From NCBI GenBank assembly GCA_963711175.1, contig CAVQDC010000029.1, positions 8 to 64,007 of the forward strand: a DNA stretch of 64,000 bases, in the 5' to 3' direction. Of the stretch, positions 3,507 through 12,952 are shown one piece after another (the first letter of the stretch is position 1; each line of letters starts with the position of its first letter). The notes beneath the pieces were generated by a model. That model saw only the letters and a program-made list of their open reading frames with translations, searched no databases and was not told the DNA's origin. The stretch comes from an uncultured Actinomycetota bacterium (lineage in GTDB: Bacteria > Actinomycetota > Actinomycetes > Propionibacteriales > Nocardioidaceae). A program made the position numbers and the translations under genes.

Positions 3507-4704
3507 ATGCCCTTCGACGTCGCTGCCTTCCGCACGGAGTTCCCCTCGCTCGACTCAGGGATCGCCCACTTCGACAACCCCGGCGGCACCCAGACGCCGC
3601 GGGTGGTCGGCGAGGCGATCGCCCGTACGCTCACCGGGCCGCTCTCGCAGCGCGGTGCCGCGACCGTCAGCCAGCGCAACGCCGAGGAGTCGGTCGCCGG
3701 CTTCCGCTCCGCGATCGCGGACCTGGTGGGCGGTGTGCCCGGCGGTGTCGTGCACGGCCGCAGCGCGACCGCACTGACGTACGACCTCTCCCGGACGCTG
3801 TCGCGCACCTGGTCACCCGGTGACGAGATCGTGCTGTGCGAGCTGGACCACGACTCCAACGTCCGCCCGTGGATCCAGGCAGCCGAACGTGCCGGTGTCA
3901 CCGTGCACTGGCTCCGGCTCGACCCGGCGACCGGCGAGCTCGACCTGTCCTCGCTCGACGCGATCACCGAGCGGACGCGGCTGGTCGCGATGACGGCCGC
4001 CTCCAACCTGCTCGGCACCCGACCGCCGGTCGCGACCGTCGCGGCCCGCGCGCACGAGGTCGGTGCGCTCGTCCACGTCGACGGAGTCCACCACGCGGCG
4101 CATGCGGCGCCGGACGTCACCGCAATGGGAGCCGACTTCATGGTCTGCTCGCCCTACAAGTTCTTCGGCCCGCACTGCGGTGCGCTCGATCGCCGATCCG
4201 GCCCTGCTGGAGACCCTCCGGCCCGACAAGCTGCTGCCGTCGAGCGACGCGGTGCCCGAGCGGTTCGAGCTCGGCACCCTGCCCTACGAGCTGCTGGCCG
4301 GTGTCTGTGCTGCCGTCGACGTCATCGCGTCCCTGGGCACGGGCGACTCCCGGCGCGAGCGCCTGGTGGCGGCGCACGCGGCCATCGCCGCGCACGAGCT
4401 GCGGCTGCGTGGTCGCATCGAGGAGGGGCTCGCGGCCCTGGGTGACCACCTGACGCTGCACTCGCGGGCGGCCGAGCGCACCTCGACGCTGTTCCTCACC
4501 TTCCGCGACCGCCTGCCCGTGGACGCGTACGAGCAGCTCGCGAAGCGCGACGTGCTCGTCCCGGCCGGCACCTTCTACGCGTACGAGACGTTCCGCGCGC
4601 TGCGACTGCCCGTCGACTCGGGCCTGCGGATCGGGCTTGCGGCCTACACGAACGACTCGGACGTGGACCGGCTGCTCGAGGGGCTCACCGAGTTCCTCGG
4701 CTGA
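3507..4704 (+). pseudogene. Cysteine desulfurase-like class V aminotransferase (Rv3778c-like), +1 frameshift near 4188
   Basis: FDNPGGTQTP, DHDSNVRPW and PLP lysine CSPYKFFGPH in one frame. Continues as IADPALLETLRPDK..FELGTLPYE in the next frame. One extra base; may be a sequencing artefact. Confidence 0.8.
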
Positions 4705-5606
4705 CTCGAACTCTGCTCGCGGATCCCACGAGCAGAATTCGAGCTGGCCGGCACCATGGGTCCGCGCCGCCAGTGGTACGTCCGCGTCCGCGCGCCGGGC
4801 TCGAACCCGATGCCCCGGTAGACCTTCGCCGGGGCCGGATAGTCCTCGTCGCCGCGCGGGCAGACCAGGCCCGTCGTGGCGCCGAGGTCGCGGGCAGCCA
4901 TGAGGGCCGAGACCGAGGCGACCGCGGCCAGTCCGCGACCGCGGTGCCCAGGCACGCACCCGACGGGCTCCACCAGCGCGACGCCGGCGCTCTCGTCGAG
5001 CCACACGCAGCACGACGCGACCCACTCGCCCTCCTCGGTCACCACGACGTGGTCGGTCTCGAGGCGGTAGGGCGACGTGGCCATCAGCCGCTCGTAGGCC
5101 GCCGAGGTGACCTTCGACGTCGCGGACCAGGCGTCGCGGTGGACCTTCGACCGCTGCTCGTGCTCGCCCTCGCGCACTGCGCGGACGGCGTACCCGTCCG
5201 GCAGGGACGCTGGACGCAACTCGGCCAGGTCGAGGAAGTGGTGGGTGAACCACGGCATCTCGATCTCGGTGAACCCGGAGTCGGCCAGCACCGCCAGCAC
5301 GACGTCCTCGGTCTCGAGGGTGCTGGTGGTGACCTCGCTGTCGCACTCCGCGAGAGCGGCATCCACGACGGCTCGTACGGCCTCGGGGTCGGCGCCGCAG
5401 ACCTCCAGCCAGCCCGGCGACTCCAGCCAGGCCCATGCGCCGTCGACGACGAAGACCGGTCCGAGGTCGAGCGCGGCCGGCTCGCCATAGGCCGCCGACC
5501 AGGCCAGCTGCCCGGGGTGGTGCCGCGCAGCGGTGGTCCAGATCTCCGAGGCGAGGGCCTGCATCCCGGGCAGGGCCTGCTCGATCTCGAGTCGCTGCGG
5601 GGTCAT
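4644..5606 (-). CDS. GNAT-family N-acetyltransferase
   Basis: VEPVGCVPGHRGRGLA acetyl-CoA motif and AKVYRGIGF. The 3' tail overlaps the convergent gene. Confidence 0.8.
   Translation of the reverse strand: MTPQRLEIEQALPGMQALASEIWTTAARHHPGQLAWSAAYGEPAALDLGPVFVVDGAWAWLESPGWLEVCGADPEAVRAVVDAALAECDSEVTTSTLETEDVVLAVLADSGFTEIEMPWFTHHFLDLAELRPASLPDGYAVRAVREGEHEQRSKVHRDAWSATSKVTSAAYERLMATSPYRLETDHVVVTEEGEWVASCCVWLDESAGVALVEPVGCVPGHRGRGLAAVASVSALMAARDLGATTGLVCPRGDEDYPAPAKVYRGIGFEPGARTRTYHWRRGPMVPASSNSARGIREQSSSQPRNSVSPSSSRSTSESFV
4705..4743. repeat. 15-bp inverted repeat (hairpin) at a convergent gene junction
   Basis: CTCGAACTCTGCTCG (4705-4719) and CGAGCAGAATTCGAG (4729-4743), one mismatch. Confidence 0.6.
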
Positions 5607-5651
5607 GGCCGCACTCTTGCACCGGCCGCACCCGTCGGGCACCGCCTTTTG

Positions 5652-5876
5652 TCAGTGGTCGTGGGCCTGGTCCGCGACCTCCTGCGAGCCCGGCCCTGTC
5701 TCGTGCGCGTCCGAGTCGACCTCGTCGGTGTCCACCGTGTCGCCGACCGTCGCGTTGCCGTCGGGCTCGGCGTCGAGCGCCCGCTGCCGGTCCTCGTCGG
5801 TGACCCGCTTCCCCGCGCCCGGGAAGGCGGACTCTTCGGGGTGTGCGGCGTACGGGTCGGGCTGGTCGTCGCTCAT
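5652..5876 (-). CDS. Small acidic hypothetical protein (74 aa)
   Basis: MSDDQPDPYAAHPEESAFPG...; ATG at 5876, GC3-biased codons, fills the gap cleanly. Confidence 0.55.
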   Translation of the reverse strand: MSDDQPDPYAAHPEESAFPGAGKRVTDEDRQRALDAEPDGNATVGDTVDTDEVDSDAHETGPGSQEVADQAHDH

Positions 5877-5942
5877 GCCCGCGACCGTACGCCGGTGGAT
5901 CACCGCGCGGGCCCGCCCACAGGGGTGGACGCGGCATGCAGC

Positions 5943-5994
5943 AGCGGTGCGTGGGACAGGTTCCTGGACATCGGTTCCTGCCTCACGCACCGCT
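5943..5994 (-). terminator. Long hairpin just downstream of the SPFH gene
   Basis: AGCGGTGCGTG (5943-5953) pairs with CACGCACCGCT (5984-5994); stem extendable by about 6 bp. Confidence 0.55.
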
Positions 5995-6002
5995 CGTCGG
6001 GC

Positions 6003-6704
6003 TCAGTCCTCGCGGGAGGACGTACGCCCGGGCTGCACCAGCTCGACGCGCGAGCCGGGCGGCAGCGCCTGGACCAGCCGCAGCTGCGCGAGCGACGGGT
6101 GGTCGTCGAGCAGCTTCGCGCCGTTGGCCAGCGACCGGAGGGCCGCGGTCTCGGCGCGAGCCGCCTCGAGCTGGGCCTGCGCCCGGTGCCGGCCGATCAC
6201 GAGCTCGGCGTACGCCGCCCGCAGGTCAGCCGGCAGCACGACGTCCTTGACGACGACGTCGACCAGCCGGATGCCGACCTCCGACGCGGCCCGGGCGACG
6301 GTGTCGGTGAACCCCGTCGCCAGCCCGGTCCGCGGCGCGCGCACCAGCGCCTCGGCCTCCTGGGTCGCCAGCGCGTCGCGGAGGGCGAGCTGGATGGCGA
6401 CGTAGACCGCGTGCACCGGGTCTCGCACCTTCTCGGTGAAGACGACCGGGTCGCCGACGGTCCACACCCAGACAGCAGAGACCTTGACGGTCACACCGTC
6501 GGCCGTGAGCAGCTCCTGGGCGGGCACGAGGTCGATGCGCTCGCGCACGTCGAGGACCTCGTACGTCGCCCGGGCCAGCTCGACGTGCCGACCCGGCCGC
6601 AGCACGCGCGTGGGCTCGCCGTCGCGGCGCTCGAGGGCCACCTGCCACGGCTGCACGGTGAGGCGCGGCCGGAGGACGTGGATGAGTGAGTGGATGAATG
6701 ACAT
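6003..6704 (-). CDS. SPFH/band-7 (slipin-type) protein
   Basis: QELLTADGVTVKVSA, VYVAIQLALRDA, VVVKDVVLP and QAQLEAARAETAALRSLANGAKLLDDHPSL. GAGGAGG RBS before ATG 6704. Confidence 0.85.
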   Translation of the reverse strand: MSFIHSLIHVLRPRLTVQPWQVALERRDGEPTRVLRPGRHVELARATYEVLDVRERIDLVPAQELLTADGVTVKVSAVWVWTVGDPVVFTEKVRDPVHAVYVAIQLALRDALATQEAEALVRAPRTGLATGFTDTVARAASEVGIRLVDVVVKDVVLPADLRAAYAELVIGRHRAQAQLEAARAETAALRSLANGAKLLDDHPSLAQLRLVQALPPGSRVELVQPGRTSSRED

Positions 6705-6789
6705 GACGGGCCTCCTCGGTGTCAGTCGTGGGTCGGTCGGTGGATGTGGTGGAGTCGTGGTGGATGGGTGGAGCAGGTCGTGCTGGGGA

Positions 6790-7050
6790 TGGTGGCCGGT
6801 GACCACAGTGTCGAGCGGGGACCTGGACCGTCGTGCTGACCGGTTCCGCCGCAGGGCTCGACCCTGCGCGTCGTCACCGGCCACCACCTGAGGAGTGAGA
6901 GTCGAACTCACAGGAGTGAACAGCTCCGATGCCAGTGCCTTGCAGGGCGTGGTGGCGAGGTACGACGCGCGGAACAGGGCCCGGAACTCCGGCCCTGCCG
7001 CTGATCTCGCCGTGGACGAGGGTAGGTGCGCGGCCATCGTCGGCGCACCT
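6790..7050 (-). ncRNA. Candidate structured leader/ncRNA with tRNA-like arms upstream of the SPFH gene
   Basis: At least 7 helices seen by eye, including GUGAG-UUCGACU-CUCAC (T-arm-like, 6911-6895) and a perfect 14-bp stem 6873-6886/6790-6803. Confidence 0.55.
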
Positions 7051-7064
7051 GGTTTTTGCGACGC

Positions 7065-7086
7065 TGTCGCACCCCTCGGCCATGAT
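7065..7086 (+). promoter_or_regulatory. PafBC-type (RecA-NDp) promoter of dinB
   Basis: TGTCGC-N10-CATGAT against consensus TGTCGG-N10-TANNNT; 6 nt before the GTG, so leaderless. Confidence 0.5.
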
Positions 7087-7092
7087 GACAAG

Positions 7093-8133
7093 GTGACCCA
7101 CTGGGTGCTCCACGTCGACATGGACCAGTTCCTCGTCGCCGTCGAGCTGCTGCGCCGACCGGAGCTCGTCGGGCTGCCGGTCGTGGTCGGCGGTCGCGGC
7201 GACCCGACCGAGCGGGCGGTCGTGTCCACGGCGTCCTACGAGGCGCGGGCCTTCGGCGTACGCAGCGGGCTCGCGCTCAAGCTCGCCCTGCGGCGCTGCC
7301 CGGAGGCGGTGTTCCTGCCGGTCGACTTCCCGGTCTACGAGGAGGCGTCGGCGCGGGTGATGGAGACGTTGCGCGCGACCCCGGGCGCCGTCGTCGAGGT
7401 GCTCGGGTGGGACGAGGCGTTCGTGGGCATCGAGACCGACGACCCGCTCGCGGCGGCCCGCTCGATCCAGGCACGGGTGCTCGAGGCGACCGGCCTGCAC
7501 TGCTCGGTCGGCATCGGCGACACCCTCGTCCGGGCCAAGATCGCGACCGACTTCGGCAAGCCGCAGGGCACGTTCCGGCTCACCCGCGACAACTGGATGG
7601 AGGTCATGGGCGAGCGCCCGACCACCGCGCTGTGGGGCGTCGGCACCAAGATCGGCGCCCGGCTCGAGGCCATCGGCCTGCGCACCGTTGCCGACCTCGC
7701 CGGCGCCGACGACGAGGCCCTGGTCGCGGCCTTCGGTCCGTCCAGCGGCCCCTACCTCGGCCGCCTCGGTCGTGGCGGCGGACGCTCGCGTCCCGACGAC
7801 ACCCCGTGGGTGGCCCGCGCGCACGGCCGCGAGACGACCTACCAGGCCGACCTCGTCACGCCCGACGAGGTCCGCGCCGCTCTCGCCGAGCTCGCGGCGC
7901 GCGTCGTGGACGACGTACGCAAGGAGGACCGGGCCGTGCAGCGGGTGCACCTCAAGATCCGGTTCGCGCCGTTCTTCACGTTCACCAAGGTGCGCAAGCT
8001 CCCCGAGCCGACCTACGACGTCGACGTGATCACGCAGACGGCCTACGACCTCTACCTGGCGCTCGACGACTCCCGGCCCGTACGTCTCCTGGGTGTGCGC
8101 GGCGAGATGGTCGCACCCGACGGCGGATACTGA
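7093..8133 (+). CDS. dinB: DNA polymerase IV (Y-family)
   Basis: WVLHVDMDQF, STASYEAR.FGV.SG, GWDEAF, SVGIG, LWGVG and C-terminal VRLLGV. Confidence 0.93.
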   Translation: MTHWVLHVDMDQFLVAVELLRRPELVGLPVVVGGRGDPTERAVVSTASYEARAFGVRSGLALKLALRRCPEAVFLPVDFPVYEEASARVMETLRATPGAVVEVLGWDEAFVGIETDDPLAAARSIQARVLEATGLHCSVGIGDTLVRAKIATDFGKPQGTFRLTRDNWMEVMGERPTTALWGVGTKIGARLEAIGLRTVADLAGADDEALVAAFGPSSGPYLGRLGRGGGRSRPDDTPWVARAHGRETTYQADLVTPDEVRAALAELAARVVDDVRKEDRAVQRVHLKIRFAPFFTFTKVRKLPEPTYDVDVITQTAYDLYLALDDSRPVRLLGVRGEMVAPDGGY

Positions 8134-8139
8134 CCCTGG

Positions 8140-8841
8140 CTACATCCGCAGCAGCGAGAGGCCGGCGGCGAGGGCGAACCCGCCGACGGTCGCCAGGCCG
8201 GCGAGGTTGCGTGCCTTGGACTTCGCCTCGGGGATCATCGAGTCGATCAGCATCGTGAGCAGCGCCCCGGCGGCGAAGCCGTCGACCACCGCGTTGACCT
8301 CGGCCGAGACGGCGTCCATCGCGAGGTAGCCGAGCATCGTGGCGACCGCACACGCGGCGGCCACGGCGACCCAGAGCCCCATGATCGTCCGCCGGCTGCT
8401 TCCCGACGAGCGCATGTCGGCCGCGGAGCCGACGGCCTCGGGAAGGTTGGACGCGAAGATCGCGACGATCAGGCTCACACTCACGCCGTCGCCGGCCGCG
8501 AGCCCGATGCCGAGCACCGCCTGCTCGGGGATGCCGTCGAGGAAGGCGCCCAGCGCGAGCGTCGGACCTGCACCCGATCCCGTCGACCTGGACTCGACCC
8601 AGCGGTTGGCGAGGAAGAACGTGGCGCTGCCGAGCGCCAGACCCACGGCGACCGGCAACGGTCCGCCGATCCGCAGCCCCTCCTCGGCGAGCTCGAAGGA
8701 GACGCTCGCGATCAGCGCGCCCGCACCGAAGCCGAGCACCAGTCCCACGAGCGTGTCGGACCACGTCCGGACGAGGGCGAGGGCGGCGCCGACCACCAGT
8801 GAGCTGGCGGCCAGCGCTCCCCACCCGAGTGACTCGATCAT
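8140..8841 (-). CDS. ZIP-family metal transporter
   Basis: GFGAGALI..VSFEL, LDGIPE, SNLPE and DSMIPEA motifs; multiple TM helices. Confidence 0.85.
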   Translation of the reverse strand: MIESLGWGALAASSLVVGAALALVRTWSDTLVGLVLGFGAGALIASVSFELAEEGLRIGGPLPVAVGLALGSATFFLANRWVESRSTGSGAGPTLALGAFLDGIPEQAVLGIGLAAGDGVSVSLIVAIFASNLPEAVGSAADMRSSGSSRRTIMGLWVAVAAACAVATMLGYLAMDAVSAEVNAVVDGFAAGALLTMLIDSMIPEAKSKARNLAGLATVGGFALAAGLSLLRM

Positions 8842-10393: not shown

Positions 10394-12952
10394 TCACTCC
10401 GTGGCGATCGCCGCCAGGACCTTCATGCGCGAGGCGCGGATCGCCGGGATGATCGCGGCCAGCACCCCGAACACGACGGCGACGACGAGGAAGACGAGCA
10501 GGCTGGTCACGGGGAGCGAGAGCACGGTGAGGTCGTCCTTGAGCGACTGGCGCAGCACGACGCCGATGACCAGGCCCAGCACCATCCCGAGGACGGCGCC
10601 GAGCAACGCGATCGCCACCGACTCCAGCGTGATCATCGTGCGCAGCTTGCGTCGGGACAGCCCCACGGCTCGGAGCAGGCCGATCTCGCGGGTGCGTTCG
10701 AGGACGCTGAGGCCGAGGGTGTTGACGATCCCGATGACGGCGATGACCACGGCGAGGGCGAGCAGGCCGTAGATCACGTAGAGCAGCTGGTTGACCTGGC
10801 CGCTGATCAGCTCCTTGAACTCCACCTTGTCCTGGACCGACAGGATCGGCAGGTCCTTGACCACGTCCTCGAGGTCCTGCTTCACCGCGTCGCGGTCGGC
10901 GCCGTCCTGCACCGTGATGCTCAGGCTGGAGTCGCTGCGCTTGATCCCCGCCTCCGCCAGGACCGACAGCGGGACGGTGACGCCGGAGGTGGTCGGGGTG
11001 TCCTCGAAGACCCCCCTGACCTCGAGCGGGATGGTCTTCCCACCGGGGAACTGGACGTCGATGCGGTCACCGACCCGAGCCCCGAGGTCGTCGGCGCGAC
11101 TCTCGCTGAGGAGCGTCTGGTCGCCCGAGAGCTCCGCGGTGCCGTCGACCATCGCAAGGTCGTAGATCTCGAAGTACGCCGGGTCGACACCCGCCGCGAA
11201 CGTCTGGTCGGGCTTGCCGTCGACCTCGACGCTCACCGGGGTGCCCTGCTGGCGGGCGACCAGGTCGACGCCCTCGACGTCCTCCATCCGGTCACCGAAG
11301 CCCGACGGGAAACCCTGGAACGTCGGCAGCTGGACCAGGAAGTCGCTCTGGAACTGGTCGTCGACGACCGAGTCGTTGGTCGCGCTCAGGGACGAGGCGA
11401 GGACCCCGACGGCCGAGACCACCGCGAGGCCGATCATCAGTGCCGAGGCGGTGGCGCCCGTACGACGCGGGTTGCGCAGCGCGTTCTCGCCGGCGAGGCG
11501 GCCGGCCGTGCCGAACAGGCGGCCGAACACGGTGCGGCAGGCAACCAGCACCGGGTGTCCGAGGACGGGTGCGAGCACGGCGGTCGTCACGACCCAGATC
11601 ACGGCGCCCGCGCCGATCCAGATGGCGTCGGTGCCCGGTGCACCTATCAGCCCGGCCGCGGCGAGCGCGGTGCCCACGGCCATCGCGATCGAGCCCAGCA
11701 CCAGGCGGCGGCCCATCCCCTTCTCCTGCACCACGAGGTCGTCGCGCATCGCCGCGACAGGCGGGACCTTCGCGGCCCGGCGGGCGGGGACGAACGCGGC
11801 GACCATGGTGACCACGATGCCGACGACGTAGCCGGCGATGATCGTGAACGGCGTGAGGGTGAGCACGTCGCCGGCGATGTCGAGCCCGAACGTACGGAAG
11901 AGACCGGCGAGCAGGCGGGACAGACCGAGCCCGAGCAGCAGCCCGAGCGTCGCGCCGACCACGGCCATCAGGAAGGCCTCGACGAGCACCGACCGGGTGA
12001 CCTGCCTCTTGCTCGCGCCGAGGGCGCGCAGCAGGGCGGACTCGCGCACCCGCTGGGAGACGAGGATCGAGAAGGTGTTGAAGATGATGAAGGCGCCGAC
12101 CACGATCGCGATCACGGCGAAGGTGGTGAGGAAGATGGAGATCACGTCGAGGAACTGGCCGATCTGGTCCTGCGTCTCCTTGACCACCTTGTCCCCGGTC
12201 ACCGCGGTGAAGCCTTCCGGTGCCACGGCGTCCGCGGCGGCGGCGAGCTGCTTCTGCGAGACGCCGTCGGCGGCGGTGAGTGCGGCGCTCGTGAACGCGT
12301 CCTCGCCGTCGAGGAAGATCTCCTGCGCCTCCTTCGTGTCGAGCAGCACCAGCGTGGCTCCGGCGGTGCCGCCGCCGTTGAAGTCCGCAGTGCCGACGAG
12401 GGTGAACGTGCGCCGGGGGTCCTTGTCCTCGGTCGGCACGATCATCGTGACGGTGTCGCCGACCTCGTAGCCGCCGCGCTCCGCCGATGAGCTGTCGAGG
12501 GTGACCTCGCCGGGCTTCTCGGGCCAGCCGCCCTCGTTGAGCACGAGGATGTCCTCGCCGGCCATGTTGTCGGCGGGCGCGTAGTTGAACGCCAGCGTCG
12601 GCGCACCCTGGCCGCCGACCAGCTTGTCGTCCTTGCCGAGGAGGAACGACCCGAATCCGTCGACCGAGCCGACCGCGGCCTCGACCTCGGGCAGGGCTGC
12701 GATCTTGTCGATGTCGGCAGGGGTCATCAGCTGCGTGGTGGCGACCCCCGCGTTGGCGCCCGAGACGTCGCCGGCCGGTCTTACGAGGCCGTCGGAGGTC
12801 GAGCCGCTGACGATGTTCTGGAAGGTGGCGTTGAGCCCCGTGCTGAAGGTCATCACGCCGGCGAGGAAGCCGATGCCGAGGACGATCGCGAGCGTGCTCA
12901 TCAGCAGGCGCACCTTGCGGGCGAGCAGGTTGCGCCAGGTCAGGAGGAGCAC
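10394..12952 (-). CDS. ABC transporter permease (FtsX/MacB-type, duplicated)
   Basis: Two FtsX-type halves: QRVRESALLRALGA and ERTREIGLLRAVG. Confidence 0.92.
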   Translation of the reverse strand: MLLLTWRNLLARKVRLLMSTLAIVLGIGFLAGVMTFSTGLNATFQNIVSGSTSDGLVRPAGDVSGANAGVATTQLMTPADIDKIAALPEVEAAVGSVDGFGSFLLGKDDKLVGGQGAPTLAFNYAPADNMAGEDILVLNEGGWPEKPGEVTLDSSSAERGGYEVGDTVTMIVPTEDKDPRRTFTLVGTADFNGGGTAGATLVLLDTKEAQEIFLDGEDAFTSAALTAADGVSQKQLAAAADAVAPEGFTAVTGDKVVKETQDQIGQFLDVISIFLTTFAVIAIVVGAFIIFNTFSILVSQRVRESALLRALGASKRQVTRSVLVEAFLMAVVGATLGLLLGLGLSRLLAGLFRTFGLDIAGDVLTLTPFTIIAGYVVGIVVTMVAAFVPARRAAKVPPVAAMRDDLVVQEKGMGRRLVLGSIAMAVGTALAAAGLIGAPGTDAIWIGAGAVIWVVTTAVLAPVLGHPVLVACRTVFGRLFGTAGRLAGENALRNPRRTGATASALMIGLAVVSAVGVLASSLSATNDSVVDDQFQSDFLVQLPTFQGFPSGFGDRMEDVEGVDLVARQQGTPVSVEVDGKPDQTFAAGVDPAYFEIYDLAMVDGTAELSGDQTLLSESRADDLGARVGDRIDVQFPGGKTIPLEVRGVFEDTPTTSGVTVPLSVLAEAGIKRSDSSLSITVQDGADRDAVKQDLEDVVKDLPILSVQDKVEFKELISGQVNQLLYVIYGLLALAVVIAVIGIVNTLGLSVLERTREIGLLRAVGLSRRKLRTMITLESVAIALLGAVLGMVLGLVIGVVLRQSLKDDLTVLSLPVTSLLVFLVVAVVFGVLAAIIPAIRASRMKVLAAIATE

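Follow-up and report, generated by a model that had tools for sequence, protein, structure and literature searches.

The window analysed here is a stretch of 64,000 nucleotides (nt) from an uncultured Actinomycetota bacterium, and the subject of this report is a 388-nt gap within it that separates a gene of the SPFH/Band_7 family from a divergent dinB-type polymerase gene (start GTG 7093). The source genome (G000) is high in GC, measures 4.1 Mb and is 93% complete. Relatives of the SPFH protein are named Nocardioides proteins by their sources, where they appear as 'slipin family' or 'SPFH domain-containing protein', and the closest locus (L079) was found in N. zhouii HLT2-9, a culturable carrier whose SPFH protein is 89% identical. 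The SPFH domain starts near residue 15, and the C-terminal part behind it is helical; the Pfam family PF01145 spans residues 16-185 and the stomatin core (6e-16) residues 50-214. No hydrophobic N-terminal anchor or stretch could be read in the protein sequence, which points to a soluble subtype, and longer homologues of 245-275 amino acids (aa) carry 20-35 additional N-terminal residues. Comparison among relatives indicates that a real RNA, folded, strongly conserved and about 225 nt long, is encoded in the gap ahead of this gene, and that it belongs to a family of structured RNAs, about 200-230 nt in length, that is uncatalogued and has no entry in Rfam 15 (Table 1).

A first-pass annotation, made from the sequence alone, had listed a series of stems in this gap. 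All of them are present in the sequence at the positions given, including the inverted repeat AGGTGCGC/GCGCACCT (7050-7024) and a long stem of 14-16 bp. Folding of the gap alone does not set them apart from chance (minimum free energy of the 389-nt intergenic RNA -160.9 kcal/mol vs -155.6 +/- 6.1 for dinucleotide shuffles, z -0.87), but comparison does so for the helices P1 and P2, the T arm and the long stem, all of which covary. It is because of this covariation that the element is regarded as a real RNA despite the unremarkable fold of the single sequence. A BLASTN search against 60 relatives showed that about 300 nt of the gap are kept at 71-74% in three genomes of the same genus. Each of them carries this stretch upstream of its SPFH orthologue, and the upstream neighbours differ, with a membrane-protein gene in two genomes and a same-strand amidohydrolase gene in the third. 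Since the upstream neighbour changes while the SPFH gene stays, the element belongs to SPFH and not to dinB. The coupling to dinB that had been read from the back-to-back arrangement thus dissolves into local synteny, as other members of the family have other upstream genes. Alignment of 16 sequences with MAFFT, followed by RNAalifold, gave 51 base pairs, 36 of them with compensatory changes. A covariance model built from this alignment, R1, aligns 29 loci. In the 29-sequence alignment fitted to R1, 94.2% of the cells are paired and 38 of the 51 pairs display compensatory double changes; the covariation score is 0.509, a value that none of 500 shuffled alignments reached (0.164 +/- 0.010), and sliding of the 3' partners gave no more than 0.125. 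The RNA is assigned to the SPFH-sense strand because G-U pairs are frequent.

The frames of both flanking genes are open far into the gap (SPFH frame 6003-7229, minus strand, 408 aa; dinB frame 6895-8133, plus strand, 412 aa). These long open frames are an artefact of high-GC DNA and could make gene callers swallow the RNA. The possibility that the gap is protein-coding was rejected, as the translations of the conserved stretch are unlike between relatives and the substitutions preserve base pairs, not codons.

The association between the RNA and the SPFH gene was followed from both sides. The RNA lies directly upstream of every SPFH orthologue without a transmembrane segment that was examined, about 35 loci from the Nocardioidaceae, from two further families in the class and from a second class in the phylum. 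Starting from the protein, a search of 200 genomes of the family found the SPFH gene in 14 of them besides the source genome, in seven genera. An R1 match was located directly upstream of 14/14 family-level and 6/6 phylum-level homologues (E 1e-36 to 6e-3), the latter six, from a sample of 400 genomes, having E values of 1e-17 to 6e-3; a metagenomic homologue (L100) also carries a match (E 9e-5). Starting from the RNA, a pattern consisting of the T loop, N50-64, the conserved hairpin loop, N9-10 and YCCCGY was searched for in 185,579 species, each represented by one genome. It occurred at 34 places, of which R1 accepts 12, all in Nocardioides or uncultured Actinomycetota. An SPFH gene follows 50-130 nt downstream on the same strand in 12/12 of the accepted places and in 0/22 of the chance hits. 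When R1 was run over 40 family genomes, the only match was in the sole SPFH carrier among them (G087), and the source genome holds a single copy of the element. The RNA and the SPFH protein were never apart in the examined genomes. Covariation and linkage therefore bear out what the first-pass annotation had proposed, a structured RNA on the SPFH-sense strand that is tied to the SPFH gene.

Beyond the range of significant matches, a low-GC (45%) leader homologue precedes a 275-aa SPFH gene at 2670-2866 of locus L098. It shares the 5' domain, a GUC-loop hairpin, UGGUAA, the long stem and the YUGUGG...CCCCGC core, has no canonical T arm, and its R1 match is not significant (E 3.1). A repeat or mobile element was rejected as an explanation of the RNA, given the single genomic copy and the lack of any SPFH homologue in the phage and plasmid collections. 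Downstream of the SPFH gene, no conserved operon partner was found and a convergent gene comes next in several members. Directly downstream in the window there is an acidic open reading frame (ORF) of 112 aa (5652-5990, minus strand), for which Pfam, NCBIfam and PADLOC gave no match and which is not kept beside SPFH in other genera.

These results bear on one alternative, namely that the gap holds a decayed transfer RNA (tRNA), the scar of an integration event or chance hairpins in GC-rich DNA. The folding energy of the single sequence would fit such an origin, as would the resemblance of the T arm and its two neighbouring hairpins to the 3' two-thirds of a class II tRNA and the patchy occurrence of the SPFH gene, which was found in 15/201 family genomes, including the source genome, and in 8/401 genomes of the phylum. 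Against it, the 38 compensatory pairs extend over about 225 nt, far past the tRNA-like part, and contradict a scar; the element is conserved across families and classes at a constant position relative to SPFH; it has a dedicated conserved promoter and no genomic repeats; and no tRNA genes were found nearby by ARAGORN in 32 loci of the class of the source genome. Hardly any credence can be given to a relic or to chance.

The predicted fold consists of a 5' domain, a central tRNA-like module and a closed 3' domain, and the 5' and 3' ends of the RNA are unpaired with each other. The 5' helix had been proposed before; covariation bears it out and adds the inner helix P1b, which had been missed and which occurs as GCGG/CCGC, GUGG/CCAC or GCAG/CUGC. 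The central module holds the T arm (helix 4), 100% paired, with compensatory changes in three of its four pairs and the loop-closing G-C in 28/28 members. Its loop, UUCRANU, is invariant across the aligned members, so that the claim of a genuine tRNA-type T arm stands. The variable-arm-like hairpin before it varies in sequence, yet it is nearly always present among the members. Of the anticodon-arm-like hairpin, its presence in the window could be upheld but the significance attached to its triplet could not: the triplet varies across members (GUC, GCA, GCG, GAC, UCC and others) and at least 4 of the 29 members (L004, L035, L036, L043) lack the hairpin, which in many relatives has a 5-bp stem and a 7-nt loop of CUGUCAA type. 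Between the two lies a single-stranded GGYA motif, 17-23 nt 5' of the T stem. By inference from its sequence and place, GGYA is a candidate mimic of G18 G19 Y20 A21 of the tRNA D loop, docking on the T loop. This match of GGYA suggests a mimic of the tRNA elbow. An anticodon-like hairpin, then a variable-like hairpin and then a T arm also succeed one another in the 3' two-thirds of a class II tRNA. A pyrimidine-rich linker of 4-13 nt leads from the T arm to the long hairpin domain, which is closed by the stem P5.

Table 1. Predicted features of the SPFH leader and its gene, in window coordinates, from the promoter to the end of the gene
Feature	Coordinates	Strand	Remarks
A-rich box AAAAAC	7052..7057	-	3 bp upstream of the -35 hexamer; GAAAAC in relatives
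-35-like hexamer GTGCGC	7043..7048	-	family consensus K-B-G-C vs published TKGMNN
-10 hexamer TACCCT (TANNNT)	7019..7024	-	18 bp after the -35 hexamer
Whole conserved structured RNA, about 225 nt	6784..7013	-	covariance model R1, 181 bits, E 4e-35
5' domain	6954..7011	-	helices 1-3 94-97% paired; 12/16 pairs compensatory
P1 GGCGAG/CTCGCC	7011-7006 with 6959-6954	-	conserved with covariation; followed by AUCA loop
P1b GCGG/CCGC, inner 4-bp helix	7001-6998 with 6972-6969	-	covaries
P2, AGUU loop (CAGGGCC.../...GGCCCTG region)	6997-6989 with 6984-6975	-	conserved with covariation
Conserved nine-base internal loop GCGUCGUAC	6968-6960	-	
Anticodon-arm-like hairpin GCC-CUGCAA-GGC	6937..6948	-	variable, optional
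GGCA, the GGYA motif of the family	6930..6933	-	single-stranded; GG[CU][AG] at this place in 27/29 members
Variable-arm-like hairpin GGAG-CUGUUCA-CUCC	6913..6927	-	1-2 nt before the T arm
T arm GUGAG-UUCGACU-CUCAC	6895..6911	-	tRNA consensus; stem covaries
3' domain, closed by P5	6788..6888	-	helices 6-9 83-98% paired
P5, long 16-bp stem	6888-6873 with 6803-6788	-	helix 5 98.3% paired; 8/11 pairs compensatory
P6 and conserved strands CCCUGNGG / CCCCG, inside P5	6856-6849 / 6820-6816	-	
Hairpin with conserved loop GUCAGCACGA, inside P5	6844-6827	-	
C/A-rich, G-poor spacer between RNA and Shine-Dalgarno sequence	6718..6783	-	unconserved
Shine-Dalgarno sequence GAGGAGG	6711..6717	-	seen in the sequence; strong AGGAGG across the family
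SPFH/Band_7 gene, 233 aa	6003..6704	-	start ATG 6704; PF01145 2.5e-22

Two long-range pairings were considered in addition to these helices. The first-pass annotation had described two mutually exclusive folds, one of them with a helix closing the three arms of the central module (6956-6949/6887-6880). The alignment does not sustain this switch, as the closing helix is 64.8% paired vs 60.5% in shuffled alignments, whereas the long stem is paired at the level given in Table 1. Pairing between CGUCG of the internal loop and ACGACG of the hairpin loop is possible and was set aside as unsupported, since the one apparent double change (in L034) is covariation of the hairpin stem. Members from another class of the phylum (f21) have, in place of the decaloop hairpin, a short UUCG hairpin that lacks the ACGACG partner.

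The RNA is not a tRNA gene, in agreement with the first-pass annotation. A D arm is missing, nothing like an acceptor helix stacks on the T arm, the anticodon is not conserved, and within the fold of about 225 nt the tRNA-like portion is limited to the T arm, the variable-like hairpin and GGYA. Nor is a circularly permuted tRNA evident in this lineage: no D arm comes after the 3' hairpin, and the T arm is followed by the linker of 4-13 nt. ARAGORN calls no tRNA here, either in the window or in the 32 related loci. Rfam 15 returned nothing at gathering thresholds and only noise of microRNA type at E<=10 in the window; at E<=1 nothing was found on the element in five diverse relatives, and the models for tRNA, tmRNA and YrlA remained unmatched. 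The nearest described counterpart is the 'band 7-associated tRNA', abbreviated b7a-tRNA, a tRNA-like RNA beside Band-7 genes and RtcB that, in the account given by Wang et al. (2018; bioRxiv 10.1101/312249), was predicted by Burroughs and Aravind (2016; Nucleic Acids Res 44:8525), had not been validated experimentally as of 2018 and was proposed to act as an RNA cofactor. The association of band-7 genes with tRNA-like or Y-like RNAs that the first-pass annotation had named is therefore to be found in the literature, to the extent of that account. As far as it goes, both cases concern a predicted non-coding RNA with tRNA features beside a Band-7/SPFH gene, an association that held here in 12/12 loci when starting from the RNA and in 20/20 when starting from the protein. 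They differ in that the b7a-tRNA is described there as strongly resembling authentic tRNA, whereas no cloverleaf was detected here by ARAGORN or the Rfam tRNA model; in that RtcB is adjacent there and never adjacent here; and in that the SPFH-RNA unit has its own promoter of WhiB7 type. On this comparison, the locus is a compact variant of the predicted Band-7-associated tRNA-like class, made of RNA and SPFH and lacking RtcB and Ro60.

A second counterpart is the YrlA RNA of M. smegmatis, which imitates tRNA in part, has T and V hairpins, is cleaved by RNase P and acquires CCA (Chen et al., 2014; PMC4201824). Like the present element, YrlA (RF02553) combines a conserved T arm with a less conserved V hairpin just upstream, its gene lies beside that of a protein partner, and there is an actinobacterial example. 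Unlike YrlA, the present RNA has no D arm, no looped acceptor-like stem after the T arm and no terminal Ro-binding helix; RF02553 was unmatched in the window at E<=10, and the source genome has no Ro60/TROVE gene.

These comparisons raise the possibility that the RNA is an independent tRNA-like decoy or processing element that is cut from the transcript, the SPFH gene merely sharing its promoter. As a decoy it would be aimed at toxins or enzymes whose recognition site is the tRNA elbow or the T arm; alternatively, it would serve as a tRNA-like processing signal. The canonical T arm speaks for such an element, the mycobacterial YrlA is a precedent for a partial mimic that RNase P cleaves and to which CCA is added, and in the second class the RNA closes tRNA arrays at their 3' end, a place in which its own 5' end must arise through tRNA 3' processing. 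Yet an acceptor-like helix on the T arm is missing, ARAGORN and the Rfam models for tRNA, tmRNA and YrlA do not recognise the element, and it is strictly paired with one SPFH clade, changing contexts included, which speaks for a functional link with the protein. An independent decoy is thus quite improbable.

The arrays just mentioned occur in three f21 genomes, where 11-12 tRNA genes, the RNA and the SPFH gene follow one another in the same orientation and the last tRNA, tRNA-Thr, ends 0-10 nt before the RNA. Two loci, L088 (8757-11351) and L089 (9247-11164), unite the array, the leader RNA and the SPFH gene in a single block. In the former, a gene for an RNase_T-family exonuclease lies directly after SPFH (10770-11351) and a gene for an AbiEii-like nucleotidyltransferase upstream (7367-8356); in the latter, the array comes after a GAAAAT...TACTAT promoter and about 220 nt of leader. 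At a further locus (L093, G019:C2:371000-385000), at least 15 same-strand tRNA genes stand directly before rtcB (4239-7662, with rtcB at about 6541-7662, plus strand), and this Nocardioides genome also carries the RNA-SPFH unit elsewhere. A single tRNA gene was seen just upstream of rtcB in two other carriers, tRNA-Arg(gcg) at 6136-6211 of L094 and tRNA-Tyr at 5804-5888 of L095. The arrays tie the module thematically to tRNA supply or repair; a physical link to RtcB is not seen here. The first-pass annotation had pointed to RtcB/Ro60 RNA-repair loci, and this part of it did not survive the comparison: the 93% complete source genome has no RtcB (PF01139) and no match to Ro60/TROVE (PF05731), and among 11 carrier genomes checked, RtcB is absent in 6 and in the other 5 is encoded on other contigs or 278 kb away.

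The region upstream of the RNA resembles the promoters activated by WblC/WhiB7, the actinobacterial regulator for antibiotic and translation stress, and a promoter of sigma-70 consensus was not found in the gap. WblC/WhiB7 promoters consist of GAAAWY, 3 bp, a -35 hexamer TKGMNN, 16-19 bp and TANNNT, with the transcription start 7-8 nt downstream (Lee et al., 2020; PMC7157823), and the AT-hook of WhiB7 requires an AT-rich site beside the -35 hexamer (Burian et al., 2013; PMC3905903). Among the 27 upstream regions that were aligned, the -10 hexamer is TANNNT in 21 and CANNNT in 6 and ends 5-8 nt before P1; the GAAAAC box lies 25-28 nt upstream of it and the intervening sequence is not conserved. 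A strict fit to GAAAWY-3 bp-hexamer-17/18 bp-[T/C]ANNNT was obtained in 18/27 members, and the remainder, including the window (CAAAAAC-cag-GTGCGC-18-TACCCT, 7058-7019), are near fits. The A-rich box is also present in class-level relatives (L082-L084), and in L089 it is located ahead of the tRNA array, which in turn is followed by the RNA. The resemblance to the published promoters thus covers the GAAAWY box 3 bp before a weak -35, the 16-19 bp spacer and TANNNT, and the differences are that membership here rests on the sequence pattern and that the box of the window reads CAAAAAC. From the distance of 7-8 nt reported for these promoters, the transcription start is predicted at about 7012-7011. 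The hairpin at 7050-7024, which the first-pass annotation had placed at the beginning of the transcript, falls instead into the spacer between the -35 and -10 hexamers, and its 3' half is unconserved even in the closest relative (L079). The perfect inverted repeat AGGTGCGC-N11-GCGCACCT is specific to the source genome and could be a local operator or chance. A LexA/SOS box was rejected as well: the GTTCGA of the T loop has no partner half-site, as judged by eye against the actinobacterial SOS box.

The source genome encodes a WhiB7 orthologue, a Wbl protein (C21:426762-426908, minus strand; PF02467) that ends in the AT-hook RKRPRGRPRK. A motif of the same type, CAAAATC-gtt-TGCCCC-17-TAGCGT, lies 377 nt upstream of its ORF (locus C21:426762-427406, minus strand). 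The whiB7 gene has a long regulatory leader, and the distance fits this arrangement. Matches to a relaxed form of the motif in the genome include the promoter of whiB7 itself and the SPFH-RNA locus. Three others precede genes recognised by Pfam, an ABC exporter (C12:17863, minus strand), a double-GNAT acetyltransferase (C21:4339, plus strand) and an MDMPI/DinB_2 protein (C39:29096, plus strand), and three precede genes named by eye only, an ArsR-like regulator (C21:580787, plus strand), an APH-like protein (C39:167621, minus strand) and an M4 protease (C39:446678, minus strand). Together these six make up a candidate WhiB7 regulon of the source organism, and most of their gene classes are listed in the WhiB7 regulon of M. 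abscessus. The SPFH-RNA locus probably belongs to this regulon as well, as far as its promoter pattern tells. The guess of the first-pass annotation that the locus answers to translation stress thereby receives independent support.

Between the RNA and the Shine-Dalgarno (SD) sequence, the 26 members compared have a spacer of 32-76 nt with 46% C and 20% G (C/G 2.26). In 27/27 members this interval contains neither a -10-like hexamer (TANNNT) nor a U run, and an intrinsic terminator-like site was not found in the gap. Because no promoter- or terminator-like sequence intervenes, SPFH is inferred to be transcribed through the RNA, which would then form the 5' part of the SPFH messenger RNA (mRNA). 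A search for an element sequestering the SD, or for a conserved alternative pairing, found none; the SD lies in the unstructured C/A-rich spacer. The notion of an attenuator that the first-pass annotation had put forward has thus lost its footing, with neither terminator nor SD-sequestering element to serve it. Of the two parts of a riboswitch or attenuator, a conserved structured domain in the 5' untranslated region (UTR) on the sense strand was found and an expression platform was not.

A position in the leader could nevertheless mean that the RNA is a purely cis-acting sensor, which binds a small molecule, an uncharged or damaged tRNA or some factor and is never touched by the SPFH protein. 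In this way it would govern how stable the mRNA is, whether Rho terminates transcription in the C-rich spacer, or how SPFH is translated. The RNA indeed invariably occupies the 5' UTR, close by and on the same strand, and its complex fold with invariant loop and junction nucleotides is aptamer-like. Rho-utilisation (rut) sites are C-rich and G-poor, and the C-rich, G-poor spacer resembles them. Two distant homologues of low GC content have the SD right next to the long stem, with U6 then SD in L098 and SD directly in L102. These points are set against a spacer that varies from 32 to 76 nt and is not conserved, an anticodon-like hairpin and a decaloop hairpin that are replaced or lost in relatives, the lack of any conserved terminator, anti-terminator or SD-sequestering pairing, with the proposed alternative fold unconserved, and the restriction to a single gene family, which is unusual among metabolite riboswitches. 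A sensor of this kind is possible but rather unlikely.

Autoregulatory leaders offer a further comparison. The thrS operator mimics tRNA-Thr, and ribosomal-protein leaders are likewise autoregulatory mRNA leaders that mimic the RNA target of the protein. The element shares with leaders of thrS type that it is a structured 5' UTR element of a single gene family, that it mimics a stable RNA and that it lies in cis. It differs in that those leaders overlap or adjoin the ribosome-binding site, whereas here 32-76 unconserved nt come before a strong SD. A protein partner or an autoregulatory target is favoured over a small-molecule riboswitch. The reading that we prefer, and to which we give an even chance, is that the RNA would be either the co-transcribed partner or the autoregulatory target of the SPFH protein under translation stress.

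According to this proposal of a partner or autoregulatory target, ribosome-targeting drugs or amino-acid and translation stress would activate WhiB7, and the transcript would be made from the WblC/WhiB7-type promoter. The RNA would start a few bases after the promoter and fold into the 5' hairpin, the central tRNA-like module and the closed 3' domain, and read-through of the C/A-rich spacer would carry the transcript to the strong SD and the SPFH reading frame. GGYA would dock on the T loop and complete a mimic of the tRNA elbow. The SPFH protein, which may be expected in large rings or cages like other SPFH proteins, would bind the RNA domain. Two outcomes can be imagined. The RNA may be processed into a stable partner in a ribonucleoprotein (RNP), as predicted for Band-7 proteins with b7a-tRNA, or it may mimic the real tRNA-like target of the protein, with SPFH feeding back on its own mRNA.

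Several observations weigh against this proposal. The binding of RNA by SPFH proteins is, to our knowledge, undocumented. The transcription start, the read-through and any processed stable species are predictions from sequence, and an unstructured spacer of 32-76 nt ahead of a strong SD offers no obvious route for translational feedback. The contact between GGYA and the T loop has no covariation behind it, nor has the pairing of the internal loop with the hairpin loop. The 29-sequence alignment was fitted to R1, which somewhat inflates pairing; the independent 16-sequence MAFFT result agrees with it. As for the WhiB7 link, the A-rich box of the window has a C in place of the G of the motif (CAAAAAC vs GAAAAC); the relaxed motif occurs 11 times in 4.1 Mb vs 6 in the reversed control, an excess of about twofold; and in the WhiB7 regulon literature searched no SPFH gene or tRNA-like RNA is listed.

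A more ambitious form of the proposal takes the eukaryotic vault as its model. The vault is built of the major vault protein (MVP), which has an SPFH-like shoulder domain, and contains vault RNA, which is held by TEP1 and not by MVP. Both cases would join a cage protein of SPFH-type fold with a small structured RNA; the vault is eukaryotic and no homology between the RNAs has been shown, so the comparison is an analogy only. The RNA and the soluble SPFH protein might form a stress-induced, vault-like RNP, switched on by WhiB7, in which the elbow mimic captures, shields or hands over tRNAs or tRNA-binding factors. This picture is speculative, and we regard it as unlikely.

SPFH/band-7 proteins are ubiquitous, and we know of no bacterial one with an established RNA partner. 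The locus described here reduces the question to one promoter, one RNA and one protein, with 29 aligned relatives, and it suggests a concrete condition of expression, exposure to ribosome-targeting drugs acting through WhiB7. If the WhiB7 link holds, a tRNA mimic together with a cage-forming scaffold would enter the intrinsic resistance regulon of actinobacteria. Should the vault-like RNP prove true, it would be an unrecognised arm of the intrinsic response of Actinomycetota to antibiotics and translation stress, and it would provide the first function for a widespread class of Band-7-associated tRNA-like RNAs.

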